Below are positions 16,010 to 55,200 of a stretch of DNA of 64,000 nucleotides, in pieces. This stretch comes from Vairimorpha necatrix (lineage: Eukaryota). The position numbers and the translations under genes are program-made. A model generated the notes under the pieces. That model was not told where the DNA came from, made no database searches, and saw only the letters and a list, made by a program, of their open reading frames with translations. Position 1 is the stretch's first letter; every line of letters starts with the position of its first letter. Location of the stretch: the NCBI GenBank assembly GCA_036630325.1, contig CP142730.1, positions 434,001-498,000 on the forward strand. The letters run 5' to 3'.

Positions 16010-16534
16010 TTTTGAAGTTTTTTGTTAATTGTGATTTTTATGAAGATTGATCACCGCAATTTTCTTTCATAATGTTGTAATGGTAAGATCCAAAAACGAA
16101 TAAATATTTGACTATTGCAATAGACCGAGCAAATGTTCTATTTTAAATTGGGGAAATTAATAAAAAAAAATTTCCTGTATTTATAACACCACAATTTTTG
16201 CATTTAAGAATTATGTCAATACTTTTAAAACACATAGAAAAAAAATCTTTTTGTTAGTGTATTGACACATTGGTCGCTTACACTTGCAGTTTAATCATAC
16301 CTCTCTAAATATGTAATACTCTTTGGGCCCTCTGTATTTTTTCAAAATATATGATTATTTTTATGCTTTAAATACCTTGTAACGAGTATACAAGCATTTT
16401 TATTGGGCAATAACTAGATGTTTTCCAATGAGAATATATACTATGTAAAATAAATCAGTGTATCTATCCTCGAATAAAATAAAGTTTAATATAAAATACA
16501 CATGAATTTTTAGCTATCCCTCTATATTTGTATA

Positions 16535-17310: not shown

Positions 17311-17763
17311 TATGACAAAACGCGCCGAACAAAAAGTATTTTCTCAATAAATTTTTTTTTTAATTAGCATGGTAAAATAAAATGCAAATATTTTTTTCAC
17401 AAAAAGCATTATGTGAATACTAAAACAATTTTCTATCAACGAGTCAACTATTGAACATGTATTAGATAATTCATAAGTTATATGATTTAACCTCACTTCT
17501 AAGTTTGTTCATAAATTTTTTTCATTTAACACAAAATTATTTGTGGCTAATTTAAGAAAGAAAGCTGATTTTGTATAGATGCCTTCTTTTTTGTTGTGTA
17601 ATTGCTTTGTCTAGTGATCTGGGAGAGATAATATAAGATACTTGATGTGCTAGAAAAAAAGCAAATACGATGTCTCGTTGAAGTTATACTAAGGGGGTTT
17701 TGTATCTGTCCTGTATTTAAAAGAGTTTATAATTTTAAAAATTGTGATGAAGTGGCCTAATCA

Positions 17764-18293
17764 TAGTAGAAAATGTCAACCACATCGTCTGTCAATAGTT
17801 TTATCACTGACGACGCGGCTACTCAACATTTAAACAAAATAGTACTTTAGAAATGTGTTTATAATTGTAAAGTCATTAATAGTTAGTAAGTGTTCATAAA
17901 AATTTAATATAAAAAGAAGTTAATGTAAAGGGTTGGAATACAAAAGCGACAAAGAAGCCATCAATAAAAATCATAATATAGATGGTTATTCAGAAAAATA
18001 TTATAAAAATAGTATCGTTCCCATAATACAGGACAATAATATTTTTCTGAATAACCATAAATATTATAATTTTTATTGATGGCTTCCTTGTCGCTTTTGC
18101 ATTCCACCCCCTACAACAAACTTCTTTTTATATTTTATTTTTAATTTAATTATTTGCATAAGACTTATTAACTATTAATGACTTTACAATTATAAACACA
18201 TTTCTAAAGTACTATTTTGTTTGCTTGTTGACGCGCCGAGTCGTCATTGATGAAACTTTTGACAGATGATGTGGTTGACATCTTTTATTACTA
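17764..18293. repeat. Long imperfect inverted repeat (~240-bp arms, 31-nt spacer)
   Basis: TGTCAACCACATC...GGTTATTCAGAAAAATATTAT, spacer 18005-18035, then ATAATATTTTTCTGAATAACC...GATGTGGTTGACA. Confidence 0.93.
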
Positions 18294-26205: not shown

Positions 26206-26663
26206 AAATGAATTTAATCAGGGTATGTTTATTGCAGTTTATATTTATAGTTTAACAAGGGTAGGTTCCGCGTTAGCGTCTCCTGCTTAAAGGTAGCTTT
26301 GTGGCTACATAGTCCTTTCCACATCAGCTTCGTCTCCTCTCCTTCGATAGTCCAGAGAAATGCTTTCTGGCGTCTTCTTTAGCGTGATCATCTGGATGTA
26401 CACTTCTACCTATTTAGGGATTCAAAGTCTTGTGGTATATGATTTGTGGAACTTAGTCACTATACCGTCCCAAGTGATTACGTAGGGAATTATTTCTGTT
26501 TTAAAACCATATATTAAGCCCAGTTCGTCTGCACGGACATCATACTTTCTTAACTTATCGTTTTCTACTTGCTGTATATTCTCTTGTGATGTGACTCCTA
26601 TTTCAATTATTCTAATTAATTTATTCTTTTTGTCTACTACGACAATATCAGGTTTATTATATT
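26206..26663 (-). mobile_element. 5'-truncated RLE-type non-LTR retrotransposon with 11-bp TSD
   Basis: KYNKPDIVVVD...IIEIGVT...KLRKYD...IIPYVITWDG (PD-(D/E)xK nuclease). TSD TTGTTTTTTAT at 26195-26205 and 26664-26674. The empty site is at about 62916 in copy 2. Confidence 0.88.
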
Positions 26664-26685
26664 TTGTTTTTTATTAAAATATATA

Positions 26686-29600
26686 TCATCATCATATATA
26701 TAAAAGAATTTTATTTAATTTTTTACCCCTCTATTTTGTGACTTTGAAATTTCTAAACTACATATTTAATGCTTAATATGTTATTAAAATATCGTTTTTA
26801 GATTTAATGTTTCAATTTGATAATTGTAGATGCGTATACTATATGTTAATACTTTTCGTTTTCAATAAAGTTTTTTGTAAAACTCAGTTCCAAAATATCG
26901 TCAGAATCGTTTTTTAGAATTTATTTAACCCTTCTAGAAAAAATTCACAAAACATGTACCAAAAAAAAAGTTAAATAAAATGTCAAAAATTGAGCTTAAA
27001 AGTTCCCACAATTATCTCATTATAATTATTAAATGTTTTTAGCTCGACTTTACTCCTTCTATGTTACTAAAAAGTATTTTTAATAAACATGTCTTCACCC
27101 TGTCAAATTCAATCATCCCAAAATGGAAACTTAACAAAATTCACTGAGACTGGACATATTAAAAAACTAAACATTTAGATCCCGTTTTCAAAACGGGAAA
27201 GCATACGCTAGTCATCATATATATAAAAGAATTTTATTTAATTTTTTACCCCTCTTTTTTGTGATTTTGAAATTCCTAAACGATACATTTTGAGCCTTTT
27301 ACGTTAATATAATATCGTTTTTAGATTTAATGTTTTAATTTGATAATTGTAAGTGCATATATTATATATTGATGCATTTCCATTTTAATTCTTTGTTTTG
27401 TAAAACTCAGTTCCAAAATATCGTCAGAATCGTTTTTTAGAATTTATTTAACCCTTCTATGAAAAATTTTAAAAACAATTGACAAAAGAAGAAATTGAAT
27501 GTAAGTGTCAAATTTTGAACTAAAAAGCATTTAGAAGTTATAGCATTGAATTTTATATAATAATTTGAATCGAATTCTGTATTTAAGCCTGCCACTAATA
27601 TAATATTTACTGTTGTTAAGAATTATATTCTCTCCTTTTCTTATTCCAACCCAAAATGGTAAATCAAAAGAAAAATGCAATGTGCACACACATTAATCCC
27701 GTTTTCAAAACGGGAAGGCATACGCTAGTCATCATATATATAAAAGAATTTTATTTAATTTTTTACCCCTCTTTTTTGTGATTTTGAAATTCCTAAACGA
27801 TACATTTTGAGCCTTTTACGTTAATATAATATCGTTTTTAGATTTAATGTTTTAATTTGATAATTGTAAGTGCATATATTATATATTGATGCATTTCCAT
27901 TTTAATTCTTTGTTTTGTAAAACTCAGTTCCAAAATATCGTCAGAATCGTTTTTTAGAATTTATTTAACCCTTCTAGAAAAAATTCACAAAACATGTACC
28001 AAAAAAAAAGTTGAATAAAAGTGTCAAAAAATGAGCTTAGAAAATCCAAAATTATCCCATTGAGATTAATAAGTGTTTTTAGCTCAACTTTACTCCTTAT
28101 ATGTTACTAAAAAGTATTTTTCAAAATCATACCTCTCCTTTTAAATTTATTCCGAAATATAAAGAAAAAAATTAAAGGAGGTACATACTAAAAAACTAAA
28201 CATATAATTCCCGTTTTCAAAACGGGAAAGCATACGCTAGTCATATATATAAAAGAATTTTATTTAATTTTTTAACCCTCTTTTTTGTGGTTTTTTAAAA
28301 TCTAAATTTCTAATTATAGCTTATTGTGATATTGTAATATAAAATATTAATTAAATGAAGGATTTTGACTATCATAGGTGCGTGTACTGTATGTTAATAC
28401 ATTTGTATTTTATTTATTATTTTTGAGAAACTCAGTCTCAAAATATCGTCAGAATCGTTTTTAAGAATTTATTTAACCCTTCTAGAAAAATTCACAAAAA
28501 TATGTACCAAAAAAAAAGTTGAATAAAAGTGTCAAAACTTGAGCTTAGAAGTTCCCAAAATTATCTCATTATAATTATTAAATGTTTTTAGCTCAACTTT
28601 GCCCTTATATATGTTACTAAAATAATTTTTCCAAATCATGTTTTCTCCTTTTCAAATTCATTCATCCCCAAATGGAAACTTAACAAAATTAAAAGGGGAA
28701 ATACATATTAAAAAACTAAACATTTAGATCCCGTTTTCAAAACGGGAAAGCATACGCTAGTCATATATATAAAAGAATTTTATTTAATTTTTTACCCCTC
28801 TTTTTTGTAGTCTTGAAATTTCTAAACTATTTGTTTTAGTCTTATTAAGTTACTAGCGTATGCTTTCCAGTTTTAAAAACGGGATCTAAATGTTTGTTTT
28901 ATAATATGCACCTCCTTTATCTTTTTGTGAATTTTCATTTTTTGATGAATGAATTTGAAAAGGAAAAAACATGATTTTGGAAAATACTTTTTAGTAACAT
29001 ATAAGGAGTAAAGTTTAGCTAAAAACATTTAATAATTATAATAAGATAATTTTGGGAACTTCTAAGCTCATTTTTCGACACTTACATTCAATTTCTTCTT
29101 TTGTCAATTATTTTTGTGAATTTTTTCTAGAAGGGTTAAATAAATTCTAAAAAACGATTCTGACGATATTTTGGAACTGAGTTTTACAAAAATAATAATA
29201 TGAATTAAAATGCATTAATATATAATATACGCACTCACAATTATCAAATTAAAACGTTAAATCTATATATGATATTTTATTAACGTAAAAGGCTTAAAAT
29301 GTATCGTTTAGAAATTTCAAAATCACAAAAAAGAGGGGTAAAAAATTAAATAAAATTCTTTTATATATATGATAAAAATTGTGTTTTTGGATTTAATGTT
29401 TCAATTTGATAATTTTGAGTGCGTATATTATATATTAATGCATTTTTATTCTAACTATTATTTTTGTAAAACTCAGTTCCAAAATATCGTCAGAATCGTT
29501 TTTTAGAATTTATTTAACCCTTCTAGAAAAAATTCACTAAACATGTACCAAAAAAAAAAGTTGAATAAAAGTGTCAAAAATTGAGCTTAGAAATTTCCAG

Positions 29601-29804
29601 AATTATCTCATTATAATTATTAAATGTTTTGGTCTCAATGTTACTCCTTCTATGTCACTAAAAAGTTTTTTTTAATATACATGTCTTTACCCTGTCAAAT
29701 TCAATCATCACCAAAATGGAAACTTACTAAAACTTACCGAGGTAGGACATATTATAAAACAAAACGGTTTATGCCCGTTTTCAAAACGGGAAAGCATACG
29801 CTAG
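26686..29804 (+). mobile_element. Array of six ~515-bp non-autonomous Helitrons (five tandem, one inverted and nested)
   Basis: Units run from 5'-TC to CTAG-3' with the subterminal hairpin CCCGTTTTCAAAACGGG: 26686-27211, 27212-27728, 27729-28240, 28241-28760 and 28761-29804. The last is split by an inverted unit at 28853-29372. Insertion is between A and T with no TSD, and the site is empty in copy 2. Confidence 0.92.
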
Positions 29805-31513
29805 TTTTTTAATAAAATTCTTTAAATAATTGATTTTTATCACTGTTCATTGTGAAGTTTACTATTAACTTTCATGTCTTTCCCGAGCTGTTTCGCATTC
29901 AGCTCGGAAAGGAAGAACTCTTCATGGCTTACTGTAGAATTATCAGATAGCCCCCTTTTTATAACTTTTATTGCCTTATCAACGGGCACATACTTCTTCC
30001 AATTTTGACGAAGATCGGAGAATATTTTCGTCAAAGATGATTTGTTCCTAGAGATATAGTCGCCTACTTCGTTTTCGGCAAATAATACTCTTGCCTTTTT
30101 TGAAGAGCTCCCTGAAGTTTCTGCAGCTTGAAAGCAGAATTCATCTCTAATAAGAAACCCCCTGCCCTCTCCTTCAATATCTTTTACTAGAGGAATATTC
30201 TTTTACTCTATGCCTATTATTTTGGCCGCGATCACCCTAATGATGTGTTCCCCTCGGGGGAAACCATAAGCGACTACAATTTTGTATTTGTAGTCCTTGA
30301 GGCTCTTTCCTTTGATTGCTAGGTCTAGAAACTCTTCTCTGGATAGCTTATCTATCCAATTCGGCTGTTTCTTCCTCGATGTGTGAGGAGAAGTTACCTT
30401 AGGCGAAGAGGTTTTCTTCATCCTGGATTTGCGCTTAGTCATAAATTTCGACTTCGCACGAGCTTTTATAGATACATAAACAAACATCTTTCAGTATTTT
30501 ATTACAGGGTTTAAAACTTGAAACGGGTACTTTCAACTGTTTCTTATCACAGTTGAAATTCTTTTTTACACCCCCTAGGAATGGGGCAAACATATTGGTA
30601 TCGACTGTTTTTGATGTTTTTGAGACATCAGATTTCTTTGAAACCTTTGGTTTCATATCACAATTTTTGAAAATGACTGTCCGGTCATTCTCCGTCTTTT
30701 CTGTTAGAAGAATATTTTTCTTCAACAACTTTCTTTTTCCTTTTACGGCAGCGGGAAACTTCCGTAAAAACACATTAAAGGCATTGGATGATGGTATCCT
30801 TTTACCAATAACCTTTATTTGCTCTTTATCTTGAGCTTTGCGAAGCCATCAAACTTCTCCTTTTCCTTTTTTTTGATCAGTACGATCAGCTTTTATGGTG
30901 ATTGGTTCTTCACACTCTCCTCTTTTAGCAGTAAGAATCATGTCAATTCTCTGCTCTAATCTTTCATTTGAAGCCTTTAGGGCATCAATTTGTGTGTTGA
31001 GTTGGTTTCTCATTACAAAAATCTCAATCTCATGCTGTTTCTTCAAGTTTTTAAGCTTGAATCTCTGTTCACTGAGCTCTTCACAGATGGCATCTAAGTA
31101 CTCCTGATGAATACTTGTCGCTCCATGTGAACTCTTACTGTATATTTTAAGATATCTTAGGGGTAATAAAAATACAAATTTATAAATATTCAACACTTAC
31201 AATAGGAAGCAAGGCTAGCTATCAGCCTAGCTCTCCCACAGTACCTTTGGTTGGCGTTTCTGCCTTCTTCTATCTTTATTCTGTTGAATAAAGTCTCTGT
31301 TTGTGACCAGAATTTTATCAATTATTGGTCTATGAAAGCAGCCCTGCGGAGGCTGCTAACATCACAATCTTGTTTGTAACCTTCCAATACTAGTGAATTA
31401 ACACTTTCTTGTACTCCAGAGGTCGATAAGTCGGCCTCAATCTCGCAAGTTTCTTCCCCCCTTTTATGCGTTTGGTGAACCCCGTTACCTTTAAATATAT
31501 CTCATAGAACGAT

Positions 31514-32439: not shown

Positions 32440-34098
32440 TTACATTTTCTCAGTTTTTTCTCTTAATTTTTCTTTTAACTCTTCATTATATTTTTTTATC
32501 TTCAACACTTCGAGATTAGATTCTTTAGCATCAGTTTTCATTTCAATCTTATTTTTTTTAATTAGTTTTCCTTTATATTCATAAATATTTATAGAATTGG
32601 ATCCAGTGAATAATGCGATTGTTTTATAGGTCATTTCCAATAATTTGTTATTACTTATAGTTACTATCTCCTTAAGAATATTAAATAAATCAATATTTTT
32701 TTCAGTTGTGCTCGTATCAACTGTAGTTGTTTTATTTTTTTCGTCAATAATTTCGCCAATTTCTTTAAGTGTTTTAAAAATCTTATCATCACTTACATCA
32801 TTTTCTTGGATATATGCTTCTGCTTCTATTATTAAACAAATAACAATTACATATAGATCAATGCCTTTTAAATCCTCTTTTACAAGTTTTGTCAATTTTC
32901 TAATTACATGCGTTATATGATGTTCGCTGTCTTTTTTATTTCCAATCATAAATTTTTCACCACTTCGAAATTTTTTTTTATTTTTTCTATATTGAAAAGA
33001 AAATATCATATGTATGGCGGATTCTGGTTTGGATATAATTCTTTTGACAAGGAATTCTATCTTGTTATGATTTTTTAATAAATTGTAAAACAACTCAATT
33101 TCGTTTGTATACTCAGTGTTAGTTAGCTTAGAACATATTTTCTCAAATTCCATATTGCATGTCTCACTTACTTTATATTTATATATATTGGGCGTGCACG
33201 GGCCCTCTGAAGGGCAGCTAGGATAGATATTAAAATATTCAAAATACAGCTCGTCTGTTTTTATATATATTGAATATTTTTCCTCTTTTTTCCTTATGTT
33301 GATATGACTACTAGTTATATTTATATATTCATCATTGTCACGCAAAGACAGATTACAATTATCGGGCGATAACTCATATATATCTTGAAGTTTATGCAGT
33401 ATTTTATCTTCACAAGTATCAGCTACATTCACTTCAAAATCAAACTTGTGATATAGTTCATTAATGCAAAATTCAAAAAAATAAAGCACGTTTTCTATAT
33501 CAATAGTCAACACAATAAATTTCTTACCTGTCTTTAAATTATCATAATAACATATTGAAGATTGTTGTTCTGTAATAGACCCGTCTTTAAGAGTTCTGAT
33601 TTCAGTGATTATTTTTTCAAATATATCTCCACTATGACAAATGTTTTCATAGATAATTTTTGAATATTCCTTATTGATTCTTCTCAAAACGTTTCTTTTT
33701 TTTACTTCTTCTACTAACTCTTTAGTAATGGGACAATTATAATAATCATATTCTTCATATATAAAACTATATGCATTTTCGTTCTTATAGTTAACTAATG
33801 TTTTTAGTTTATCCTCTAATAGCTTAATAATATTTTTAACTGATTTCTGTCCTTCGGGTATAATAGTCAATATTTTTTGAAAAATTGGTTCCTGTCGAGT
33901 CGTCCATTTCAAATAAAATTTATATTTATTTCTTTTATAAACTGCAATTATATCAATGTAATTCTTTCCTTTTCTCATATCACAAAAACGATAATTTCCC
34001 GTTTTAATTTTTTTTAAAAGATCATCTTGAATTATTTTGCATGTTTCTAAGTTTGCTTGTACAAACAATATTGCAGAAACGACTTTCAAGATATTCAT
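32440..34098 (-). CDS. Diverged family B paralogue, 552 aa, probably C-terminally truncated
   Basis: ACCCTCC-ATG start and hydrophobic N-terminus. Shares ELFY.LLK..N..EFL...I..KP, CL..EA, IFKTL..IG..I.E and IDL..I with the 741-aa protein. Coding-like decayed sequence continues to about 31950. Confidence 0.82.
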   Translation of the reverse strand: MNILKVVSAILFVQANLETCKIIQDDLLKKIKTGNYRFCDMRKGKNYIDIIAVYKRNKYKFYLKWTTRQEPIFQKILTIIPEGQKSVKNIIKLLEDKLKTLVNYKNENAYSFIYEEYDYYNCPITKELVEEVKKRNVLRRINKEYSKIIYENICHSGDIFEKIITEIRTLKDGSITEQQSSICYYDNLKTGKKFIVLTIDIENVLYFFEFCINELYHKFDFEVNVADTCEDKILHKLQDIYELSPDNCNLSLRDNDEYINITSSHINIRKKEEKYSIYIKTDELYFEYFNIYPSCPSEGPCTPNIYKYKVSETCNMEFEKICSKLTNTEYTNEIELFYNLLKNHNKIEFLVKRIISKPESAIHMIFSFQYRKNKKKFRSGEKFMIGNKKDSEHHITHVIRKLTKLVKEDLKGIDLYVIVICLIIEAEAYIQENDVSDDKIFKTLKEIGEIIDEKNKTTTVDTSTTEKNIDLFNILKEIVTISNNKLLEMTYKTIALFTGSNSINIYEYKGKLIKKNKIEMKTDAKESNLEVLKIKKYNEELKEKLREKTEKM

Positions 34099-34675
34099 GG
34101 AGGGTAGCAGAAAAATTTGTTTTTATATGAAAATAAATTAAAATATTCAAATATTTAGAAAAAATCACATCAAATTAAATATTATTTCTGTAGATTAAAA
34201 AATGAAAAACAGTGTTATTGTATTAGCTTTTGGATATTATTGAAAAAGACAAGATAATTATTAAATTTACATATAAACATAAAAAATTACCGGACCATTT
34301 TCACTTTAGCCCCCCCTACCAATATGAATTTAGAATTTTAAAAAATATCACTTTTTTCAAAAGTCGAAGCTGAAAAAATGTGGAGGAGGAAAAAACAAAA
34401 AAATATTTTGAAATAAAATAGCTTAATAACCAAAACAAACTAAATTATTTTTGTTTATTTTTCTAAATATATTTGATCGTTTTCTTCTTCCAGTTATTGA
34501 TCAATAATTATCTTGATTGTACATTGTAAAGTATAACAAAAATAATTCTTAAACAATTTTTATATTAACAATATTATATAAGGGAATTACTTTGTTATAA
34601 AGTATATTTTTTAAGAAATAAACAGTTTTATAAATATGTGAAATTTCACTTTTGGAAATAAAATTGATAATATTA

Positions 34676-37600
34676 TGTTGAAGGAGTTAATGTTGAATAA
34701 CTATAAATAGCTATAATATTATTAAATACCCCTTATGTCTACTATTCTCAACAGTTAACAAGCATAAGGGTTTATTTATTAAATAGTATAAAGACACCAA
34801 CATCCCCCTCAAAAGCACCTTATCGGTTAACTTCTCTCACTTTTATTTTCATTTAAGAATTTTTGAAATTTTGTAAGCTGAGCGTGATTACGCTTAACCT
34901 CTTTTCAGTTGTTAAAACATAATAAGAATCACCTTCTAGGATTTCTACAATTTTCCCTACAAATACGTATTTACTATCTGCTTTGGCAAATGATGTATTA
35001 GTAAGAATGTCTTGTGATAGTACATATTCTCCAATCTCAAATTTTTCTCTTTATAACGACTTAAATTCCTTCTCGTATTTTATTCGTTGCGCTTCTTTTT
35101 CTTCTGGCGTAATTCTATTTTCCCACATCTCATTTGAGTACACTTAATACCGCTGTGATAGGTATTATTAAATCGTTTAACTATATCTGGTAAATTTATT
35201 TCCAAATTATAATTGGGAATTTCTAAAAACTTTTTCCTTATAATCTGCCATATATTTCTATTTAGTCTTTCGACTCTTCCGTTGGACTGATTTTTTCCCG
35301 GGCTTGCTATGAACTATAATTGAGTTTTTCTCGCACCACATTGAGAACTCTTTCGAAATGAATTCTCTCCCATTATCTATTATAATTTGTTTCGGAAGTC
35401 CCCATTCTTCAAAGATTTCTTTCATTTTTTTAAACGTTTCCTTGTTCGTTTTGTTCTTTAGATATTTTATATTAACTTTTCATGTGTAAAGATCAATACA
35501 TGTAAGTAGGGTATAGCCTGTTCTAGGAATAAAAGGTCCATGCTAACCTTTTCCAATTTGTAATTTGCTTCCACTAACTTTTCTCCCCCTCGTGTCTTTT
35601 GTTGATTGCATTGACAAGGTTTACAACGTTTTAAGTATTGAGCAATTGATTCTTTTATTTTAGCCCAAAAATATTTTCTCTTTATTGTATAAATCATTGC
35701 ATCTCTTCCACCGTGGGTTGTAAGTTTTTCGTGTGCTTCCTTAAGGAGCGCTGGTCTATCTTCGACGCGCGGAAAGAGCTTTGTTTCTGTGTCGTTTACT
35801 TTATAGTACCACATACCTTTAGAATCGATGAGCACATTTTTTGGCAGTTTTAAGTCATGAGTTTAATCCTCCTTTTCAGAAAATCTACTTAACACATCAG
35901 CCTCAATAATTTCGGTGCCTTTCTTATAATGTATTGTGAAGTCATAACTTTGAAGTTTCTCTCTCATTCGTTCTAATTTCATATTTCCAAATATATATTT
36001 GTTTTAGCGAACGTAAGGGCGGTGTGATCGGTTATTACTTTAAACTTATAGCCTTTTAAATATAATTCATAGTTGTAGTATTCCCCAAGCCATAGCTAGA
36101 AATTCTCTCTCTGTTATTGTATATTTTTTCTCTGCTTCAGACAGCTTTTTGGATGCTTAATCTATAACTATAAGTTCGCCATCTTTTTCTTGTTGATGAC
36201 AAGCTCCTATTCCTGTATTTGAGGCATCTGTTGTTAAGACAAATGGTTTTGTGAAGTCTGCTACATTTATTGCTATGTTAGAATTTATCTTTAGTTTTAT
36301 GTTGCTAAAAGTTTCCTCGCATTCTTTAGTCCATTTTACTTGGTCGTTGTCCATGAGACCTTTAAGTGCATCATATAATGGTTGCGAAATTGTTGCAAGG
36401 TCGCAATATATTTTCTATAGTAATTTGCAAATCCAAGAAATTTTTGTAAGTCTTTTTTGGTTTTGGCGTTTTGAAATCCATTATCTTTCTCTGGTGTTCT
36501 CCTATTGGCCATAAGTTGACCCGTTGATCATAGATCCTAAAAGCTTTACTGTTTTGCTTTTATATTGCATTTTATCTGCGTTAATTTTAAAATTATTATC
36601 TGCGAGCATTTGAAGAACTTCTTAAAAGTTCTGGTCATGTTCTTTTTCTGTTTTTCCATATACTATTATATCGTCCATATATACCATACATTTAGTTTCA
36701 ATGATATCACTTAAAATATTATCCATTATCATTGAAAGATTGCTGGTGAATTTTTGAAGCCTTGAGGCATTCTGGTGTATTTGTACAAATTATTTCTAAA
36801 ATAAAAGGCTGTTTTATGCTTATCTTTAGGGTCAATTTTTATTTGGAAGAAGCCGTCTGATAGATCAAATACTGTAAAAATCTTTTTGCCCTGTGTCATA
36901 TTTTTGATATCATTTATTTTTTGGATCGTGTAATTGTTTTCCTCTACAACTTTGTTTAACCATTGCATATTACAGGTTATTCTATATTCTCCATTCGGTT
37001 TTTTTACTGGGCGCATAGGATTGCGCCATGACGAGGTAGATCTTTCCATATAACCCAAATTTAGAAGTTTTGTTATTGTTTTTTTTGGATACCTTCTATG
37101 TCGTATTGTGGTATGTTTCTTTTTTTTAATATTGATTTTGGCACCTTCTTTTGTATCTATTGTGCACATTATTTTATTATAACCTCCGGATGGTTTATCA
37201 TTAAAGAGTTTACAGAACTTTTTCTTAAGTTCTCCTATTTTATGACTCGATTTTTGGACATTAACTATAGTTGGATTACCAATAAAAAGGGAAATTGATC
37301 AACTGTCCATGATGTAAAAAGTGGTTGTTATCTGTATGTGATTTATTTTCACAGTTAATTCTATGTATTCTGTTAGGGTATTTTCTTGTCCAAAAATGTT
37401 TGTTGCCGTAATCTCTTTCGTCTCTATGTTAAGAAATCCTTTTTCTTCAACAAGCTTCCTACTAATTAAATTTAGATTGCTACCTGTATCTACCACTGCA
37501 TTTATTATATCCCCAGCAAGAAATACTTCCATAGTCTTAACTTCTCCTAGTGGTGTTTGTAGATTGTTAATCAAAAATCTTTCCAGATGCAAATTTTGTT

Positions 37601-38233
37601 CTTCTTTAAGAGGTTGCATATTGGTTCTTATCTGCTCAATGTTCTGAGTTTGAGGTTTCTTATTTTATGATTTTCTCTTTTTAATATTAACAATTCTCTT
37701 CTCCTTAATAGTTCTATCTTGTTCTGATAATCATCGTATACTGATTGGTTAGCAAAGTAGTCTCTAAAAGTTAAGAATCCTTCTAAAGTTAAAAATGTTC
37801 TTGAAATTATTTTTTTAGCAAATTCTTCATCCATACCAGAATCATAAGCAACAGTTATAATTCCATCTAACCATTCCCTCACTTGTTCATTTAGCCTTTG
37901 TCTAGCTTCCAATAAATTCAAAAGAGTTATTTCCTCTGTTATTTTTTTATTCGACCCTTTAATTGTCTCCATGTAACATTTGTAAATTTTTGTTTTTTTT
38001 GATTATTAAAATTTGGGCCTTATTATCAAGAATCCTATGGAAGATTGATATTTTTTCCTTGTCTTGAATAATGTTGTGAGCTTTAAACTGGAGCTCCAAA
38101 TTTTCCATGTCTGCTTTGGCTTTAGCGATTCTGAATGTTAGTCCTTCTATTTTCTGTTCCGTACAGGGCGCCATGTTGAAGGAGTTAACAAGCATAAGGG
38201 GGTTGTTTATTAAATATTATAAAAACACCAACA
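34676..38233 (-). mobile_element. Ty3/gypsy LTR retrotransposon, decayed, with ~60-bp LTRs
   Basis: Domain order gag, protease (VVDTGS), RT (DLSDGFFQI, MPQGFKNSPAIFQ, YMDD), RNase H (TTDAS), integrase (H..H..CKPC). LTRs TGTTG..CAACA at 38174-38233 and 34676-34802. PBS TGGCGCCC abuts 38173 and PPT GAGGGGGA abuts 34803. Confidence 0.95.
34691..34753 (+). mobile_element. 63-bp solo LTR of a related family nested in the gypsy 3' LTR
   Basis: TGTTGA...TCAACA flanked by the 5-bp TSD GTTAA (34686-34690, 34754-34758). Absent from the partner LTR at 38174. Confidence 0.85.
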
Positions 38234-38564: not shown

Positions 38565-39425
38565 ATGTTAACAGTCTCAATATTATTCATTTTGAATTTA
38601 CAAAAATCAAAAGCAATTCATGAAAATAATGAAAGTGCTTTAACACAAAAAAGTACGTACGGAACCAATTAATATGAAATAACTGAGTTTTATGAAGTCG
38701 AACTTGACTCTATTAAAAACATGGACTCAAGTATTAAACAATAAATAATCGGGATGATATACGACGTTGTTTTAGAAAAAATGAGGTTTCCTATATTAAT
38801 GCAACATAGCTGGCCAAAAGAATTAGACGAAAATGAATATGAAATTCGGAAAGAAGACATATATTTTAATTTTTTCATGCAACTTAAAAGTCATTCTGGG
38901 GACATTAATTTCCTTTCGTGTACACAATTGGCCGTTAGCACATTATTATTGGCTCTTCACAAAAATATTTCTAAACTATATATTAAATTGTTAAATTTTA
39001 TATTTTTGGGAATAAAAGTTAATGTTAATTGTCAAGGGACAGATCTCCAGTGGTTCTAAGATGGCCCTGGAGACCAGAGAATACCATGCTGTAGGTATTC
39101 TTCTTCTCCTCTCTAATTATGTTTTGGAGGGAAATACTTTATTTTCCCTCCCACAAACATAAAAGAAAATCATACCCATAAGGGTATGAAGAAGTTAAAT
39201 AAACAATTAAGTAAAACTAACTCTTCTCGGACTGCTGGGCAACCAGTAGTCCACATTAATGATGCGAAAAAAATCATTGAAGGATTTGTATAAATAAAAT
39301 GAATGAAGAAAATAATTTATGCATTGAACAAGTTTTTAAAAATGATGTGTATGAAAAACTTGATGAATATATCATAGATAGTAATATTGAAAAAAAATAT
39401 GAATACTCTGAGAAGGAGGATAAAA
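38565..39425 (+). pseudogene. Family A pseudogene, copy 2, disrupted by stops and a solo LTR
   Basis: Homologous to 4981-5630. ORF pieces 38754-39059 and 39299-39547 are separated by the 226-bp insertion. Confidence 0.7.
39030..39255. mobile_element. 226-bp solo LTR
   Basis: TGT...ACA termini with TSD TTAAT (39025-39029, 39256-39260). The empty site is at about 5440 in copy 1. Confidence 0.85.
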
Positions 39426-39430
39426 TATAT

Positions 39431-39540
39431 TGTAGGAAGTGCTACACGTGTCAAATATATAGTGTCATTGTTTTGATATATTTGAAACTTTGTTTAATTA
39501 AATATTTTAGAATAAATAAACCCATGTTTTCATTCCAACA
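39431..39540 (+). mobile_element. 110-bp solo LTR
   Basis: TGTAGGAA...TTCCAACA with TSD TATAT (39426-39430, 39541-39545). The empty site is at about 5612 in copy 1. Confidence 0.85.
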
Positions 39541-41250: not shown

Positions 41251-42615
41251 ATGAATACGTAATTTACAAATAATTATTGTCAGGCGACGAACCTACGCTG
41301 ACAATAAGAATCCCCAAATGTGATTGATTCTTATTTAATATAAATGTGAAGGATAATATAAGTGACAGGTGAGTAATTAGTATTAAACACGAGCATTTAG
41401 AGAGTTACTTTAATTTTAGCAATTTACACTTTCGGAATAGAACGTCGAAATGGCCTATTCCAAATATTTCCTATTTATTTATTCTCCAGTCCTTACCCTT
41501 GATCATGAAAGCAACTAACAATCCAAATAAATCTATTATTGATACTCCGTCTTCTATTTCGGATCAGACCACGTGTCTGATCACAAATATATATAGGTAT
41601 TCGGGTATTCGTAAGTGCAGTTTTTTTTAAAAAAACTCTCATTTATGTTCCACATATCGTCTTTCCTCTACACTTAAACAATGACAAATTATGTACGAAT
41701 CGTCCGACGTTAATATAATCATACCGGGACAACTAGTAAATTCTATGATTGTATTCAGTTAGGGGACCTTCTTCTTCCCAACATATTGACTCATTTGGGT
41801 CTTGGAAGATTTTTGACCTACTGTCAAGTGGCTCTAGACATAACATAAGGGTAAAAAAAATTTGAAAAAAACATTTAAAAAAATGTATAACTCAAGAAAT
41901 GTTAATCCGAATGATTAAAACAAATCTGTAAAATTTTGATTCTTGTGGATAAAGTTCGAAAAAAAAATTTCATTAATTTGCCGTCTGTGCCCGGATTCAG
42001 TACGTAAAAAAAATATAGAACGTCCAGGCACAGAGCGTTGCGATGAGAAATTTATTAAAATTTTTTTTTGAGAAAAAAAGACCACAAAGGAATTGCCGAA
42101 AACGAATTAGGATTTTACAGCGGGTTGTAAATATACTTTTCTTGCTTTTTTGAATTGTGTAAAATCGTAAATCGGAGGAATGTTCTCTGTAAAATATAAC
42201 CCTAAAGTATAAATTTTACATAACTACTTAATAAATATCAAAAATGTGATTTAGGATTCATAATGATTTTCCGAACCTCGTATAAAATAATCAAATCTTC
42301 CTATGTGTAAACCCATTTAAAAGGCTTTAAATATATAAAAATTTATATATAGCAATATGTTGGCTAATAAAATGGAATGATCTAAACATGAATAAATATT
42401 AATTGTTACGGAATTTTAGTAAAATCAAATGACTGTACATAGATCTACGCAAAAACAAAAGCGAAGAAGACTACTTTTGTGAAATTTGTTATATCTGAAA
42501 AAACTTAAGTACCATAATACTTTTTAAAAATAGATTTAAATCTATTTTTTTTCTTACAATCTACTTGAAAGATATATAATAATGTTTTTTGACCAATTCC
42601 CTAATCATAAAAATA

Positions 42616-45481: not shown

Positions 45482-47707
45482 TTAATAATTGTATAATATT
45501 TCTACTAATTTATTATGCAAATCTATGGCCGAATCTCCTTCCAGTAAATATGCTAATATGTCTTTGTATTCTATTTTTAAAATAATATCACAGATTTTAT
45601 TATCATATGCGACATCTCTAACACTCGAATTTACTATATTTTTAAAATTTTCCAACAATAAATTTTTTACTATATAGGTTTGCTGTTTTTTATTCATTGT
45701 TATCTTTTCTTTAATTTTATCAGTAAAGGTATTTTTGATTTCATCTTCATATTCACTAATCAAATATTCAGATAATGCTTTTTCAAAATTTTCTACTAAT
45801 TTATCTTCAAAATTTAAAATTTTTGGTTTATATTTTTTTATAGAATATTTAAACAATTTTTTATAATTTTGTATCTGAGTTGACGAAATAATATTTCTAA
45901 TAGCTATACAGACTTTTTGTTTTAATTCAAATTCCATTTCACTTATTTTATATTGTGTAATCTCCAACATATCTATATTTATTGTTTCGTTTAGTAATTT
46001 TTCATAACTTTCTCTACATAATTTCTGTAAAACTGTTTCGTAATTTTTCCTTGATTCCAACATTTCATTTTTGTCTTTTTCTTGTATTCTACTTATTAGT
46101 ATATTTCTATCTAATTTTTTTATTAAATTTTTTGTATTCCTTTCTATTTCTTTTTTGTCGAAGCCCAGATTGTTCAAAAATCCATTTTTCATGAAAGTAT
46201 ATTCATTTCCATCTTGTATTTTATAAAAAACATCATCGTTTGTAAATAATGTCATCATTTTCAATAAAAAATTTTCAATGTTTTTGTTATATGTTTTAAT
46301 ATCAGTTATATGAGCATCTATAACATCATATATTTTTATTAAATCAATTGAGTTGTTGCCTTCTTCTGATATCAAGTTTCCAATGTTTATTAGAGTTTTA
46401 AATATTGGCTCATTGAGAGCCTCGGTTTTTTGAAAAAACCTGTCTGCTTCTAAAAATAAACAACCTTTCATGATAAAACTACAGATATCGAATCTTTCCG
46501 AAAGAGCTTTTATTAGTTTCCCCACTAAATATATATTACTTTCATTGTTTTCAGAAAACTCTCTTTTTCTTATTATCATATTTTTTTCGTCTCTGGTAAT
46601 CTCCCCCAAATATTCACCTAGGTGAGCAATCAATATATTAAGTACTGTGCCAGGTTTGTCTAAAATCATATTTAGCAGGAATTCAAGTCTGTTATTTACT
46701 TTTAATATTTGGTAAAATAATTCGAAACCAGGAAACTTATTTTTTACCACTAAATAAAAAAATTGAAAAATCATTTTAAATTTGTCAAAACATTTTTGGT
46801 CGATAAATTCGTGATTTTCTTTGGAGTTTGCATTTTTTCCGACCAAATAAGAATTAGAACTAGTGTAACTAGAAAATGTTATTTTTCCATTTCCGATCGT
46901 GATCTTGAAATCGTCGTAGTTAATTTCGTTTTCATTAAAAACCTCTTCAATGGCTTCGTCATCAAAAAAATCTACGATCGTATCAAGGTTCACATTGGTG
47001 TATAATTTTTGCACATTATTGAATATTATACCATAAAAATTATCCGGGATTGGATGTATTTCAAAGTACAACTTTTCGGCCTCATGTATACTGATATTGA
47101 AATCAAATCTACTATAACCATATTTGCTATAAATATTCGAATGGATACAGTGCATATTATCTTTTTTTAAATAGGAAATTATTGGAATATAAATATTAGA
47201 ATCACTTGCATCATTTTGTTTTTTAAATTTTATCATTAAGTGCTTCTCGTCATGATAAAAATTTTGTTCAAGAAAATGATCAAAAATTATTTCATTATTT
47301 TGATCTTTGATATATATTACAAGATCTCTAATAATAGGATAGTTTAAAATATCTTCAAACGAGTACTTTAGTATTAAAGTGTCAATAAACAATATCATAC
47401 TGTTATTTTGAATTTGTTTGTCAATCTCTTCAGCAATTAGCTTTATTGATTTTTCTCCACATTCAATTTCAAAAAAAAAAGTTAAATTTTTTAAATTCGA
47501 AAATGCACATTCTAAATATATATCACAATTTATAACATGATCTCCGTCATCGTAATTGATTAATACACTCCAATAACGTTTACTATTATCAAAGATAATA
47601 TATTTTTTGTTCCTTATTAAATTATTTAAATAATGACTTAAGTTATCATAACCGAGGTTTGTAGTTGTAACAAATAAAATTGTAAAAAATAAATTCATAT
47701 AATTCAT
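45482..47707 (-). CDS. Lineage-specific 741-aa protein (family B), putative signal peptide, function unknown
   Basis: Long intact ORF with CCCC before the ATG, hydrophobic N-terminus (MNYMNLFFTILFV) and a K/E-rich, probably helical C-terminus. Confidence 0.88.
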   Translation of the reverse strand: MNYMNLFFTILFVTTTNLGYDNLSHYLNNLIRNKKYIIFDNSKRYWSVLINYDDGDHVINCDIYLECAFSNLKNLTFFFEIECGEKSIKLIAEEIDKQIQNNSMILFIDTLILKYSFEDILNYPIIRDLVIYIKDQNNEIIFDHFLEQNFYHDEKHLMIKFKKQNDASDSNIYIPIISYLKKDNMHCIHSNIYSKYGYSRFDFNISIHEAEKLYFEIHPIPDNFYGIIFNNVQKLYTNVNLDTIVDFFDDEAIEEVFNENEINYDDFKITIGNGKITFSSYTSSNSYLVGKNANSKENHEFIDQKCFDKFKMIFQFFYLVVKNKFPGFELFYQILKVNNRLEFLLNMILDKPGTVLNILIAHLGEYLGEITRDEKNMIIRKREFSENNESNIYLVGKLIKALSERFDICSFIMKGCLFLEADRFFQKTEALNEPIFKTLINIGNLISEEGNNSIDLIKIYDVIDAHITDIKTYNKNIENFLLKMMTLFTNDDVFYKIQDGNEYTFMKNGFLNNLGFDKKEIERNTKNLIKKLDRNILISRIQEKDKNEMLESRKNYETVLQKLCRESYEKLLNETINIDMLEITQYKISEMEFELKQKVCIAIRNIISSTQIQNYKKLFKYSIKKYKPKILNFEDKLVENFEKALSEYLISEYEDEIKNTFTDKIKEKITMNKKQQTYIVKNLLLENFKNIVNSSVRDVAYDNKICDIILKIEYKDILAYLLEGDSAIDLHNKLVEILYNY

Positions 47708-49156: not shown

Positions 49157-49920
49157 TTTTTTTTGCAAGTAAGTGTTAAAAATCTTATTGGCCTAGATGA
49201 ATCGGATGTGATCCTTTTCCAATTTTACTGTTAAATTATTACTTACTTAAACTCCCCCATATTACATGCCGATGCAGCAATCTCCGCCTTGCCCATTGAA
49301 CTTGGCTCCAAAAGTCATTTTTTATTTATGCCTTTAATCGCGTTTAAGTGACCTCACGGCTGATATACTTAACAGGCATGGTTTTTTTAGCCCGAGGAGT
49401 GACATCATTATGCTAACTCAAAGGTCTCAAAGAACATCTGTTAAGCACACAAGGGGTGTACAATCATTACATAACCAGCCAGGTATTTTCATTAGCTGTC
49501 AACCTTAGTTCCTACCACTAGATTCATCCGCCAGATCACATACCCTGTAGAACAAGGTCCAAAAGGACTTCTGTTGCTTACTTCGTCTTGTCTTTGTTTA
49601 GCTTTAATATAACACTCTAGAGTGCTCCTGCCATGGGCTTCAATGAGGCCATATCCATCAGACACTTTCATGTATTATAAAGCCACTTTTAGAGGTTAGT
49701 GCTTCTGGTATTAAGTGCTGTTCCTATACCAGACACCAATTCACTTATTCCTGGGCCCATACAGGTTTCATTGAATCAACTTAATGATTTTGTAGACATT
49801 TCATCCTCTGAGTTGATCCACTGCACCATAGAAAGTAGAAAAAAATTTTGGTAGCCCTGACATTCGAACTTAGCATTGTATAATGATAGCGTCGCCTTCT
49901 ACATCTAAGGCTAAAAACTA
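49157..49920 (-). mobile_element. SINE-like element subfamily 1, copy 2
   Basis: Duplicate of 15242-16009. Confidence 0.65.
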
Positions 49921-50444
49921 TTTTGAAGTTTTTTGTTAATTGTGATTTTTATGAAGATTGATCGCCGCAATTTTCTTTCATAATGTTGTAATGGTAAAAT
50001 CCAAAAACGAATAAATATTTAACTATTGCATTAGACCGAGCAAATGTTCTAATTTAAATTGGGGAAATTAATAAAAAAATTTCCTGTATTTATAACACCA
50101 CAATTTTTGCCATTCAAGATCAATGTTCATACTTTTAATACACATAGAAAAAAATCTTTTTGTTAGTGTATTGACACATTGGTCGCTTACACTTGCAGTT
50201 TAATCATACCTCTCTAAATACACAATACTCTTTGGGCCCTCCGTATTTTTTCAATATATATGATTATTTTTATGCTTTAAATACCTTGTAACAAGTATAC
50301 AAGCATTTTATTGGGCAATAACTAGATCTTTTCCAATAAATATATATATTATATAAAATAACTCAGTATATCTATCCTGTGAATAAAATATAGTTTAATT
50401 TAAAATACACATGAATTTTTAGCTTATCCCTCTATATTTGTATA

Positions 50445-51221
50445 GGTGCCCTTAGCTCAGTGTTGAAGGCGATGATTCTATTGAGCAACGGCTGGGTTCG
50501 ATTCCCGTGGCAATAAAATAGCTTCTACTTTCTATGACGCAGTTGGAACAACTCAGATGATGAAAATCTCCATGATAATCATTAAATTGATTCATTGAAA
50601 CTTGTGTGTGTCCAGCCACAAAGGGATTAGCATATATTGTAGAACGCACCTAAAGGCCAAAAAAATAGTATCACCTCCTTGGTAATTTAATGATACATAA
50701 AAGTATCTAATGGGTACGGCCTAGTTGGAGCCCATGGCTGGTGCACTCTAGAGTGGGATCCTAGAGCTAACTAAGAAAAAAGACGAAGTTAAGAAACAGA
50801 AGTCCTTTTGGACCTTGTTCTACGGGGTATGTGATCCGGTGGACGAATCTAGTGGGAGAGACTAAGGTCGAAAGCCAATGAAAATACCTGGCTGGTTATG
50901 TTGTGATTGTACACCCCTTGAATGCAATATGGATGATTGTAGGGACCTTTGAGTCAGTACGATGATGTCTCTCCTCGGGTTATAGATAACCATGTCAATA
51001 AGGATATCTGCTGTGAGGTTATTTTGGACGCAATTTGAGGTATTAATAGACAATGTTCTTTAATATCCAAATTTCAATATTATACGATAGGGGTTCTGCG
51101 CTTAAAAGTAATTTAATAGGAGTTTAAGTGAGTAAGAATTTAAGTAGCAGTTGGATGAGGATTAACATTGAATCCCTTTAGTCCTTACGTAACTGATATT
51201 TTCAACTTTTATTATAAAAAA
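50445..51221 (+). mobile_element. SINE-like element subfamily 2, copy 2
   Basis: Duplicate of 16535-17310. Confidence 0.72.
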
Positions 51222-51674
51222 TATGACAAAACGCGCTGAACAAAAAGTATTTTCTCAATAAATTTTTTTTTAATTAGCATGGTAAAATAAAATGCAAATA
51301 TTTTTTTCACAAAAAGCATTATGTGAATACTAAAACAATTTTCTATCAACGAGTCCAACTATTGAACATGTATTAGATAATTCCTAAGTTATATGATTTT
51401 ACCTCACTTCTAAGTTTGTTCATAAATTCTTATAATTTTACACAAGAAGATTTGTGGCTAGTTTAAGAAAGTGAAGCTTATTATGATGAAGATGCCTTCG
51501 CTTTTGTTGTATAATTGCTTTGTCTAGTGATCTGAGAGAGATAATATAAGATACTTGATGTGCTAGAAAAAAGCAAATACGATGTCTCGTTAAAGTTATC
51601 CTAAGGGTTTTTTGTATCTGTCCTGCATTAAAAAGAGTTTATAATTTTAAAAATTGTGATGAAGTGGCCATATC

Positions 51675-52205
51675 ATAGTAGAAAATGCTAACCACATCGT
51701 CTTTAAAAAGTTTTATCACTGACGACGCGGCTACTCAACATTTAAACAAAATAGTACTTTAGAAATGTGTAAATAATTGCAAAATCATTTATAGTTAGTA
51801 AGTGCTAAATAAAAATTTAATATAAAAAGAAGTTAATGTAAAGGGCTGGAATACAAAAGCGACAAAGAAGCCATCAATAAAAACCATAATATTGATGGTT
51901 ATTCAGAAAAATATTATAAAAATAGTATCGTTCCCATAATACAGGACAATAATATTTTTCTGAATAACCATCAATATTATAATTTTTATCGATGGCTTCC
52001 TTGTCGCTTTTGCATTCCACCCCTTACAACAAACTTCTTTTTATATTTTATTTTTAATTTAATTAGTTACTCAAGACTTATTAACTATTAATGACTTTAC
52101 AATTAAAAACACATTTCTAAAGTACTATTTTGTTTGCTTGTTGACGCGCCGAGTCGTCATTGATGAAACTTTTGACAGATGATGTGGTTGACATCTTTTA
52201 TTACT
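51675..52205. repeat. Long inverted repeat, copy 2
   Basis: Duplicate of 17764-18293 with the spacer at 51918-51948. Confidence 0.92.
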
Positions 52206-55200
52206 AATTATTAACGATATTAGACGAAATAAAAAAAAACAAGTAATGCAGTATAAGGATGCGTAATTTAAGAGCAATAACAATAAGGCTTTATCAATAA
52301 ACGTATGCATGCTTAATATGCCATTTAAGCCATCTTCAATATTTGGACTATGTAGCGTCCTGAGCGCGCTATATCTTAAAGTAATTCCTTTTGCAAAGTC
52401 TGATAGTTCGTCAAAATCTTCAACATAAACAACTTCTGAAAGTAGCTGTTTTTTGTATAAAATTTGTAAAGCAATAGCAGAAAAGAATCATAGATTTGAG
52501 TCTTCTTATTCTATATGTAAAGTGTTCCGCCTGCTTTCCTATATATTCAAATATTAGTATGTTAATATTATTGGTTTAATACAAATTAATTAAAAATTCG
52601 TCGGGAAAAAAGCAGTTATAAAAAAAGTCATTATCTAATTTTTAAGATAAAAATACATGTATTAGAATTACTTATTGTGATTTTTATTACATATAATCGC
52701 GCAATGAGCAATAAAATTGATTTAAAATGTAAACACATGTTTCTACATAAATCAAGAATTTTCAATACAGCAACATCTATAGTACTTTTTTTGCATTTGA
52801 GTTTAATACTATAACATAATTTTGTTATCTTAATCTTATTATATGTGGTCTCATGTTTAAAGACAAAAATCATGGAATTAAAAAAACAATTTGCTGTCAT
52901 TTGTTTATAAAGCACAAAACATGATTTTCTTAATATATTTTGGTAAATACAAAACTTTTATATATGAATCGCAATAGTATTGCGGTAGAATAAGAGTTGT
53001 TTTTTTGCTTCGGTGCATATATTTTATCCTGATAGAGCTAATATATAGTCATATTACTTAGTGTAAGCACTATAGTTGTGGGAAACCATGGCTTATGTGG
53101 TCGTGTCGATTACCTATATATTTATTTGATTATAAGTTATTGTAAAATAAAGAAAAAACCTCAATGAGTTGCTAAAAACTATGTTGTCTGTAAAGGCATT
53201 TATTGTTTACATTTAAGACGTATAAAACACATCTAAAAATATGTCAAATATAATTAAGAAAAGAAAACACTACAAAATTCTATTTTTGATAATTAAAAAG
53301 AGGTTTAACACTTTTTAATTTATTATTTTAATTTAAATGCCAGTAAATTTAAAATTGGTCGCATACTATCGTTTTTTAAGTCTTGTTCGCCAGATTTGGG
53401 TAAATGTATATAAATTTATAAAATTAATGCTACCAATGAAGTACATTGATGCGTAAATGAATGGCTGGAAAAAACTAAATCATGTATAACGATTATATAG
53501 ATAAAAATGTGTTGATTGTTAAAAGAAGGATTTCACTATGCTATTATGATATAGTTTATCATACAACGAAGTATCTAGTGATCTTTAAGATTAAAATATC
53601 ATCTAGCCACGTTAAATTAGCAAATATACAATTTTGAAAGGTTTTTTATGTAGAATTAAGTTTTAATATAATAATGTAAATATACAAAAAATTAGTATTG
53701 ACACAAATTATGTGATGATTACTAATGAGGAAATAGATTAAGAATTAAATATAAAAGAAGTTAATGTAAAAGGTTGGAATACAAAAGCGACAAAGAAGCC
53801 ATCAATAAAAACAATAATATTGATGGTTATTCAGAAAAATATTATTGTCCTGTATTATGGGAACGATACTATTTTTATAATACTTTTCTGAATAACCATC
53901 AATATTATGGTTTTTATTGATGGCTTCCTTGTCGCTTTTGCATTCCACCCCTTACAAAAAACTTCTTTTTATGTTTTACTTTTAATTTAATTAGTTACTC
54001 AAAACTTATTAACTTTTAATGACTTTACAATTATAAACACTTTTTAAAGTACTATTTTGTTTGTTTGTTGACACGCCGCGTCGTCATTGATGAAACTTTT
54101 GACAGATGACGTGGTTGACATCTTTTATTACTAGTTATTAACGATATTAGACGAAATCAAAAAAAAAAAAGTAATGCAGTATAAGGTCCGAAATCGAAGA
54201 ACAATGACAATAAAGCTATATCAATAAACGCATGCATGCTTTATATGTCATTTAAGCTATCTTCAAAATATTTGGACTATGTAGCGTCCTGAGCGCGCTA
54301 TATCTTAAAGTAATTCCTTTTGCAAAGTCTGATGGTCTGTCGAAATCTTCAACATAAACAACTTCGGAAAGAAGCTGTTTTTTGTATAAAATTTATACAG
54401 CAATAGTAGAAAAGAATCATATATTTGAGTCTTTCTATTCTTTCGTAAGGTGTCCCGCCTGCTTTACTATTTGAAAATATATTAGTATGTATATATTATT
54501 GGTTTAACACAAATTAATTTAAAATTCGTCACAAAAAAACCAGTTTATAATATAAAAGCCATTATGTAATTTTTAAGATAAAAATACATGTAGAAGTCTT
54601 AATTTATTGTGATTTTTATTGCTCATAATCACGCAATAAGTAATAAAATAGATTTAAAAATAGAAACACATATTTCACATAGATTCAATTTTCAATACAG
54701 CAACATCTATAGTATTTTTTTTGCATTAAAATTGATACTCTAACATAATTTTGTTATCTTATTCAAAATTATATGTGGTCTCATGTTTTAAAGACAAAAA
54801 ATATGGAATTACAATTATAATTTACTGTCATTTAATTATAAGACAAAAAATATAGTATTCTTATTATATTTTAGTAAATGAAAAAGTTTTATACATGAAT
54901 TGCAATAATATTGGGGTATAATAAGAGTGTTACGATGCCTCAATGCATATATTCTATTCTGACAGAGCTAATATTATATCAAATTAATTAGTGCAAGCAC
55001 TATAAATGGGAAAATTGTGGCCTTTATGGTCAGTCGATTACTTATAATTTATTTGATTATAAGTTATTGTAAATTAAGAAATATCCTCGATGAGTTGCTA
55101 AAAACTATGTTGTCTGTAAAGGCATTTATTGGTCACATTTAAGACTTATAAAACGCATCTAAAATATTGTAAAAACAATTAAGAAAGGAGAACACTACAA

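Follow-up and report, generated by a model that had tools for sequence, protein, structure and literature searches.

Ty1 and Ty3 of S. cerevisiae carry long terminal repeats (LTRs) of about 330 bp in the case of Ty1 and of much more than 60 bp in the case of Ty3, and we know of no start codon built at the junction of LTR and primer-binding site (PBS) in Ty1. The PBS of Ty1 is located inside the GAG ORF at nt 94–104 (PMC4974528) and the 5' UTR is reported to be only 53 nt long (PMC3592414), so that translation would begin in the LTR, ahead of the PBS. The sequence-only reading of the locus described here, which took gag to start normally downstream of the PBS, was thus too general with respect to Ty1. 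In Ty3 the PBS is bipartite and lies outside GAG (PMC4974528).

Microsporidian elements provide closer parallels. In Table S1 of Parisot et al. 2014 (PMC4202319) we counted 43 of 50 complete consensus elements of Anncaliia whose ORF begins within the LTR, and the table includes LTRs of 45, 50, 73 and 90 bp. One of these elements, Aalg retro L, has an LTR of 50 bp and an ORF starting at position 32, with the order AATAAA, CCC, ATG, six codons and an in-frame ATG at the junction. The main-text passages of that paper emphasize the single polyprotein and are silent on the overlap of LTR and ORF. A literature search, which most subscription papers lay outside, returned no paper on an overlap of start codon and LTR in microsporidia. 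For an expressed POL element of A. algerae, for which SILAC detected the protein, Panek et al. 2014 (PMC4072689) describe a host-type GGG motif ahead of its start codon and read it as domestication of one element.

Host gene starts have been characterized in E. cuniculi, where 5' UTRs stay below 7 nt and most starts are preceded by a CCC- or GGG-like motif that follows an A/T tract (PMC2803860). The same source describes the A/T tracts ahead of CCC as promoter signals, gives AAUAAA for about half of the genes examined and states that not all microsporidia commonly have canonical poly(A) signals.

The window analyzed here, a stretch of 64,000 nucleotides from Vairimorpha necatrix, contains a decayed Ty3/gypsy-type retrotransposon of 3558 bp on the minus strand (34676–38233). 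Like Aalg retro L it shows an AATAAA-CCC-ATG cassette in a tiny LTR together with a junction ATG, although host and family are different and the window copy is dead. The coding PBS is shared with Ty1, which unlike the window element belongs to the Ty1/copia superfamily and has another domain order, a tRNA-iMet primer and two ORFs.

Anatomy and decay of the window element

Pfam searches on natural ORFs together with tblastn revealed the domain order PR-RT-RH-IN of the Metaviridae, with the protease match below the cut-off; the IN-before-RT order of Ty1/copia was not found (Table 1). Two direct LTRs with TG...CA ends fitting the consensus TGTTRNR...YNYAACA (PMC3601003), a tRNA PBS and a polypurine tract are likewise shared with Ty3 and its relatives. 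The target duplication of 4–6 bp typical of Metaviridae is seen for the family, with 5 bp, and is absent in the window copy. Ty3 differs from the window element in having two ORFs. A length of 3558 bp with remnants of PR, RT, RH and IN sets the element apart from TRIMs.

Table 1. Positions of the features of the retrotransposon in the window
Feature	Position	Strand	Remarks
5' LTR	38174..38233	-	60 bp, TGTTGG...TCAACA; ends identical in 7 solo LTRs
AATAAA in A/T tract	38206..38211	-	candidate poly(A) signal and/or promoter tract; not in every copy
CCCCC, host-type CCC-like motif	38198..38202	-	2 nt ahead of LTR ATG
LTR ATG	38193..38195	-	22 nt from LTR end; most likely the polyprotein start
Junction ATG	38172..38174	-	LTR terminal A plus PBS TG; in frame, seven codons after LTR ATG
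PBS for tRNA-Lys	38156..38173	-	no spacer; read in gag frame
First gag-region ORF	37959..38195	-	78 aa; crosses LTR end and PBS; early stop, copy broken
Second gag-region ORF	37628..37972	-	114 aa, different frame; assigned by position ahead of protease
Aspartic protease fragment	37299..37619	-	PF13975 E=5.5e-4, below cut-off
Reverse transcriptase fragment	36729..37169	-	RVT_1 E=1.9e-15
RNase H fragment	36157..36354	-	RT_RNaseH_2 E=1.7e-13
Integrase remnants (H2C2 zinc finger and core)	35137..35814	-	Integrase_H2C2 E=4e-14; tblastn with L214 protein
Polypurine tract	34803..34810	-	directly ahead of 3' LTR
3' LTR, 49 + 10 nt	34676..34802	-	split by nested solo LTR
Nested 63-bp solo LTR, sister family	34691..34753	+	opposite orientation; 5-bp duplication; CCCCTT-ATG cassette 19 nt from end

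Two claims about the 5' end could be reproduced directly: the first gag-region ORF opens at the LTR ATG and crosses LTR end and PBS in frame, and the terminal A of the LTR forms a second in-frame ATG with the TG of the PBS (38174–38172). The 78-aa ORF is assigned to gag by its position. Its Pfam match to Ty3_capsid has an E value of 0.027, below the cut-off, and a search for it among longer proteins gave 39 candidates, none of them at E<=0.01, which is weak evidence.

A target duplication is missing at the window element (GATGG vs TAATA), whose two LTRs are 4 substitutions and 1 gap apart over the first 50 nt. It is situated at the edge of a segmental repeat of 34–37 kb, and a duplicate with 97% identity is located 75 kb off. 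Probably the window element is a recombinant of two insertions. The paralogous flank at 4651–4721 runs on without the element and the right flank of the element does not match, so this comparison yielded no clean pre-insertion site. RNA folding of 38120–38200 indicated no special structure (z=0.10); the G+C content of the window is 29%. Contigs of one sequencing run cover 29 of 30 bins and are silent on transcript starts.

LTR length and copies of the family

We searched the genome (15 Mb, 12 contigs) for the LTR region and obtained 32 matches; 30 distinct real LTR sequences were kept after five spurious or partial rows had been dropped. The ends are identical in 5', 3' and solo LTRs of the family. 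All seven solo LTRs are flanked by target duplications, perfect (5/5) in four and 4/5 in three, mostly of the TAATA/TATTA type, and the paired copy L036/L056 shows a 5/5 duplication. These common ends, together with the target duplications, show that the length of 60 bp is real, as had been proposed, and rule out a longer true LTR. One could argue from the diverged LTRs and the lacking target duplication of the window copy that the repeat was cut down from a longer LTR or arose as an assembly artefact, but this is refuted by the common ends, and LTRs of 49–87 bp with 5/5 duplications also occur in related lineages. We assign it next to no probability.

Twenty-four of the 30 sequences carry the LTR ATG, always 22 nt (seven codons plus one nucleotide) from the uninterrupted end, and indels fall upstream of it. 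This constancy counts in favor of a putative start at the LTR ATG. The junction ATG was found in 10 of 15 distinct 5' ends. All 14 translated 5' ends of the family stop early, so the frame cannot be traced to pol within the family, and because no examined copy is intact the test of the layout was done on other families. The six sequences without the LTR ATG comprise one decayed 3' LTR and five members of a subgroup B, which shares about 73% identity with the window copy. Eight subgroup B loci share a common upstream flank and a damaged first base, while the flank of L020 differs; the shared features make subgroup B look like one insertion that was copied with its flank. In two of its sequences the junction ATG is kept and the LTR ATG is gone. 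Eight codons past the junction, subgroup B and L028 carry an ATG; the window subfamily reads ATA at that codon.

Substitutions were also sorted by codon position in 10 of 12 picked 5' ends, with L024 and L020 left out for indels. The LTR codons gave 4/3/3 substitutions without third-position bias, but the gag control with 3/4/5 was also nearly unbiased, so that the lack of a codon pattern in the LTR carries no weight.

Six members of subgroup B (L008–L011, L014 and L015) are 3'-truncated copies on several contigs with one common upstream flank, which suggests that a larger repeat or mobile unit carried them along. One solo LTR of the family (L046, G000:C3:1222577-1222742) is located 35 bp from a tRNA-Gly gene; this is a single case.

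The primer-binding site and host tRNA-Lys

The PBS was compared with the host tRNA set of 63 genes representing 50 distinct sequences. For all six PBS variants scored, tRNA-Lys was the best match of the 50, and the PBS of the window copy is read in the gag frame, which agrees with the earlier description of a protein-coding PBS. The PBS of L034/L054 has 15 contiguous matches to tRNA-Lys(CTT), and that of the window copy reaches its highest score with the tRNA-Lys genes. At the variable position the window copy has the base of the TTT genes and other copies have the base of the second CTT gene. The variants match three host tRNA-Lys sequences and thereby encode Gly, Asp or Cys at one codon of the gag frame. 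That they follow the host genes counts for the reading of the locus preferred below. The variation is consistent with a PBS copied from whichever tRNA served as primer and not shaped by selection for the encoded peptide, though it may alternatively reflect chance substitution in dead copies.

A sister family and the clade of small LTRs

The nested 63-bp insert in the 3' LTR is a solo LTR of another family with 28 matches in the genome. By reverse transcriptase this sister family is the closest relative of the window family (55% identical, tree support 95/92). Its cassette consists of ATTAAA, CCCC, an ATG 19 nt from the end, a junction ATG and a tRNA-Lys PBS in 7 of 7 translated 5' ends, and one frame continues without a stop for at least 200 codons. 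In the sister family the conserved downstream Met is located 9 nt beyond its place in the window family. Each of the two differences in spacing is a multiple of 3, which again counts for a start at the LTR ATG as judged from the spacing. The sister family includes young copies with near-identical LTRs and broken frames.

In an RT tree built with rows from this one genome, window family, sister family, L212 and L214–L217 form one clade (100/100). These seven members have LTRs of 49–87 bp, no spacer before the PBS and an in-frame junction ATG in every case. Six of them carry an upstream ATG close behind CCC at 16, 19, 22, 25, 28 or 40 nt from the end, that is at 3n+1. The remaining member, L216, is young: it has identical LTRs of 57 bp, a 5/5 duplication and a frame of 1091 aa. 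It lacks an LTR ATG, and the first ATG after its CCCC is the junction ATG; three 5' ends of this type are identical over 85 nt. A solo LTR of the L216 family (57 bp, 98% identical, perfect 5-bp duplication) lies in the window at 31139–31195 on the minus strand.

In-frame ATGs inside LTRs across lineages of the genome

We selected 40 loci from the 150 best RT matches and the sister family, mostly chosen for long open frames. The automatic search found an LTR pair for 35 of them and none for five (L198, L219–L221, L227). LTRs ranged from 49 to 350 bp and 27 of the 35 pairs showed perfect 5-bp duplications; the other eight, including the representatives L218, L222 and L226, have imperfect duplications or uncertain ends, and their boundaries are used as placed automatically. 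At 60% protein identity the loci fall into 16 lineages. The nearest unbroken lineages have single frames of 1017–1137 aa.

An ATG wholly inside the LTR and in frame with the long ORF is present in 14 of the 16 lineages vs 2.7 expected from LTR shuffles, whereas in the other two frames such an ATG was found in 1 of 32 cases. The corresponding P=2e-10 overstates independence, as the lineages are related, and 14 of 16 is therefore to be read as an inherited rule and not as 14 independent events. The excess counts in support of an LTR that may work like a host gene start, and the in-frame ATG is usually found close behind CCC or GGG. On the sequences compared, an in-frame ATG after CCC/GGG inside the LTR is the rule in the lineages of this genome and forms a clade-wide layout. 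The two exceptions are L216, with the junction ATG only, and L226, where the LTR ATG is in frame with a first ORF that breaks before pol and which we counted as a miss. The claim that the ATG stays in frame across copies thus holds for 24 of 30 family LTRs and 14 of 16 lineages and fails for subgroup B and L216. Intact copies without the LTR ATG had been named in advance as evidence against it; they exist in part, in that the young L216 has only the junction ATG and subgroup B lacks the LTR ATG.

Length differences between related lineages are also informative. Compared with L194/L196/L200, the pair L204/L205 is 1 nt shorter between ATG and LTR end and 4 nt longer after the PBS. The same CCC-ATG thereby keeps its frame with about 1180 codons; the reading frame across the PBS differs, and a junction ATG is missing. 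This compensated frameshift counts for a start at the LTR ATG, as far as frames can indicate it. Among L191, L201 and L202 the indel after the ATG measures 3 nt, while those before the ATG measure 1–2 nt. Lineages with spacers of 1–3 nt have no in-frame junction ATG and keep the LTR ATG. AATAAA or ATTAAA directly before CCC occurs in the window family, the sister family, the L194 type, L215 and L217. AATAAA is not universal: it is missing in subgroup B and in some 3' LTRs, and it precedes CCC in only some lineages.

In L189, L191, L193, L201, L207, L210 and L217 the stop codon of the polyprotein lies 41–110 nt into the 3' LTR, so that the polypurine tract is also coding. For the L218 lineage, with a frame of 1285 aa, no tRNA match was detected at the automatically placed LTR end. 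In L198 an open frame of 1921 aa joins a host-like N-terminus to an RT-bearing frame and probably arose when an element inserted in the reading frame of a host gene.

Host gene starts and a possible reading of the LTR

Among window ORFs of at least 150 aa, CCC or GGG occurs within 22 nt of the first ATG in 5 of 10, vs 14% of 2335 ATGs. This bears out in part the CCC-then-ATG layout that had been noted for host genes of the window; the AATAAA part of the cassette is found within 30 nt upstream in only 2 of those five. The other five ORFs may be fragments of broken paralogues.

Reverse transcription needs an RNA that starts within the LTR, upstream of U5 and PBS. If the host machinery starts RNA a few bases after A/T tract and CCC, it would leave a 5' UTR of less than 7 nt, as measured in E. 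cuniculi. Such an RNA start within the LTR, combined with near-leaderless host mRNA, would place the first AUG inside the LTR and cause R, U5 and PBS to be translated. U3 would then comprise about 32–38 nt, with the RNA start at or just before 38195. Lying in U3, AATAAA would enter the RNA only from the 3' LTR, and cleavage about 20 nt beyond it would give an R and a U5 of about 10 nt each. The peptide encoded by the LTR would be a tolerated leader in which the frame matters and the sequence hardly does, and the codons of the PBS would be dictated by the priming tRNA. We consider it likely that the window element is a dead copy of a microsporidian-type Ty3/gypsy element with a single polyprotein, whose 60-bp LTR would work like a host gene start. 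The LTR ATG is accordingly placed by us, with good though not full confidence, as the start of the polyprotein, and for the poly(A) and R part of the model our expectation is evenly divided. The Anncaliia elements listed with an ORF start inside the LTR, and the cassette of Aalg retro L (PMC4202319), count for this reading by analogy; the subgroup B sequences without LTR ATG, L216 with its junction ATG only and the patchy occurrence of AATAAA count against it.

The junction ATG could instead be the real start, the LTR ATG being optional or bypassed and only the PBS coding. All seven members of the small-LTR clade have it in frame without a spacer, L216 offers no earlier ATG, and two subgroup B sequences have kept it after loss of the LTR ATG; its +4 base is G, which is described as favored in E. 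cuniculi (PMC2803860). The same clade, however, retains the upstream ATG at 3n+1 nt close behind CCC in six of its seven members, and in the lineages with 1–3 nt spacers it is the LTR ATG that is kept and the in-frame junction ATG that is missing. A scanning ribosome would also reach the LTR ATG first if the RNA begins ahead of it. We regard a start at the junction as improbable. Still less credit, a small residual chance, goes to a conventional gag start after the PBS, at the Met 8 codons past the junction or at a later Met in DME, with a frame that extends into the LTR incidentally. An ATG is found 8 codons past the junction in L028, L015 and L008 and 3 codons further in the sister family, and copies without it mostly have a later ATG, but the window subfamily has ATA at this place. 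An incidental in-frame LTR ATG would be expected in about 17% of lineages and not in 14 of 16, and a start downstream of the PBS gives no reason for the compensated frameshift between L204/L205 and L194/L196/L200.

A further possibility concerns only the hexamer and is compatible with a start in the LTR and with the remainder of the preferred reading except its poly(A) step: AATAAA may be part of the A/T promoter tract, or a product of chance at 71% A+T, with poly(A) addition set otherwise. We think this somewhat doubtful but a serious contender. The gaps in its distribution speak for it, as do the promoter role described for A/T tracts before CCC and the uneven use of canonical poly(A) signals among microsporidia (PMC2803860). 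Its recurrence or that of ATTAAA just before CCC in window family, sister family, L194 type, L215, L217 and Aalg retro L argues the other way, as does its position, which leaves room for cleavage inside the LTR.

For the clade with LTRs of 49–87 bp we tentatively go one step further, to a reading that we hold to be possible rather than probable. Here the replication signals would write the N-terminus of the protein: the start codon would consist of the A of the integrase end and the TG copied from the CCA of the tRNA (in L216 the first ATG available), and the next codons would be rewritten in each round by the priming tRNA, as Gly, Asp or Cys from three tRNA-Lys genes. With R and U5 of about 10 nt each, such an LTR would come close to the smallest size at which an LTR can function, a state forced by the host's almost leaderless mRNAs.

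Provided that RNA data agree, the rules of host gene starts would reshape microsporidian Ty3 elements. Near-leaderless mRNAs would push the start codon into the LTR, U5 with the integrase end and the PBS would become codons, and LTRs would shrink to 49–70 bp. The minimum size of U3, R and U5 would become a question that is testable on natural elements. LTR finders with a default minimum LTR length of 100 bp would miss such elements. The domestication signal of the Anncaliia element could then be re-read as ordinary grammar of the clade: Panek et al. (PMC4072689) describe the motif for a single domesticated element, whereas here young elements of recent insertion generally show it. The arrangement cannot be called unique, given the coding PBS of Ty1 and the Anncaliia data published in 2014, which the main-text passages of that paper leave undiscussed. 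Nor is it specific to this element or to tiny LTRs, as the idea of a minimal design had implied, since it holds for LTRs of 49–350 bp in this genome and appears in the Anncaliia table (PMC4202319). The value of the present locus is limited to this extent, and also by the window copy being dead.

Other repeats and genes in the window

The segmental repeat at whose edge the element lies is a tandem one (4651–30861 vs 38230–63998, about 34–37 kb, 88–94% identity) with further units beyond the window (L002, L125). Two host ORFs on the minus strand, 32440–34098 (552 aa) and 45482–47707 (741 aa), show CCC ahead of the ATG, and their N-termini are hydrophobic; no Pfam match was obtained for the 552-aa ORF. 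The gene of 552 aa adjoins the element and is duplicated together with it 75 kb away. Between the two lies a stretch of 370 bp (~34290–34675) with 11 other matches at 76–78%, perhaps the upstream region of a gene family. Solo LTRs of other families were found on the plus strand at 39030–39255 (226 bp, L201 type) and 39431–39540 (110 bp, L194 type), and a partial match of the L189 type at 41516–41585. An array of repeats of about 520 bp, partly inverted, occupies 26650–29850, and similar nested inverted repeats, possibly MITE-like, are located at 15400–18300 and 49300–54100.
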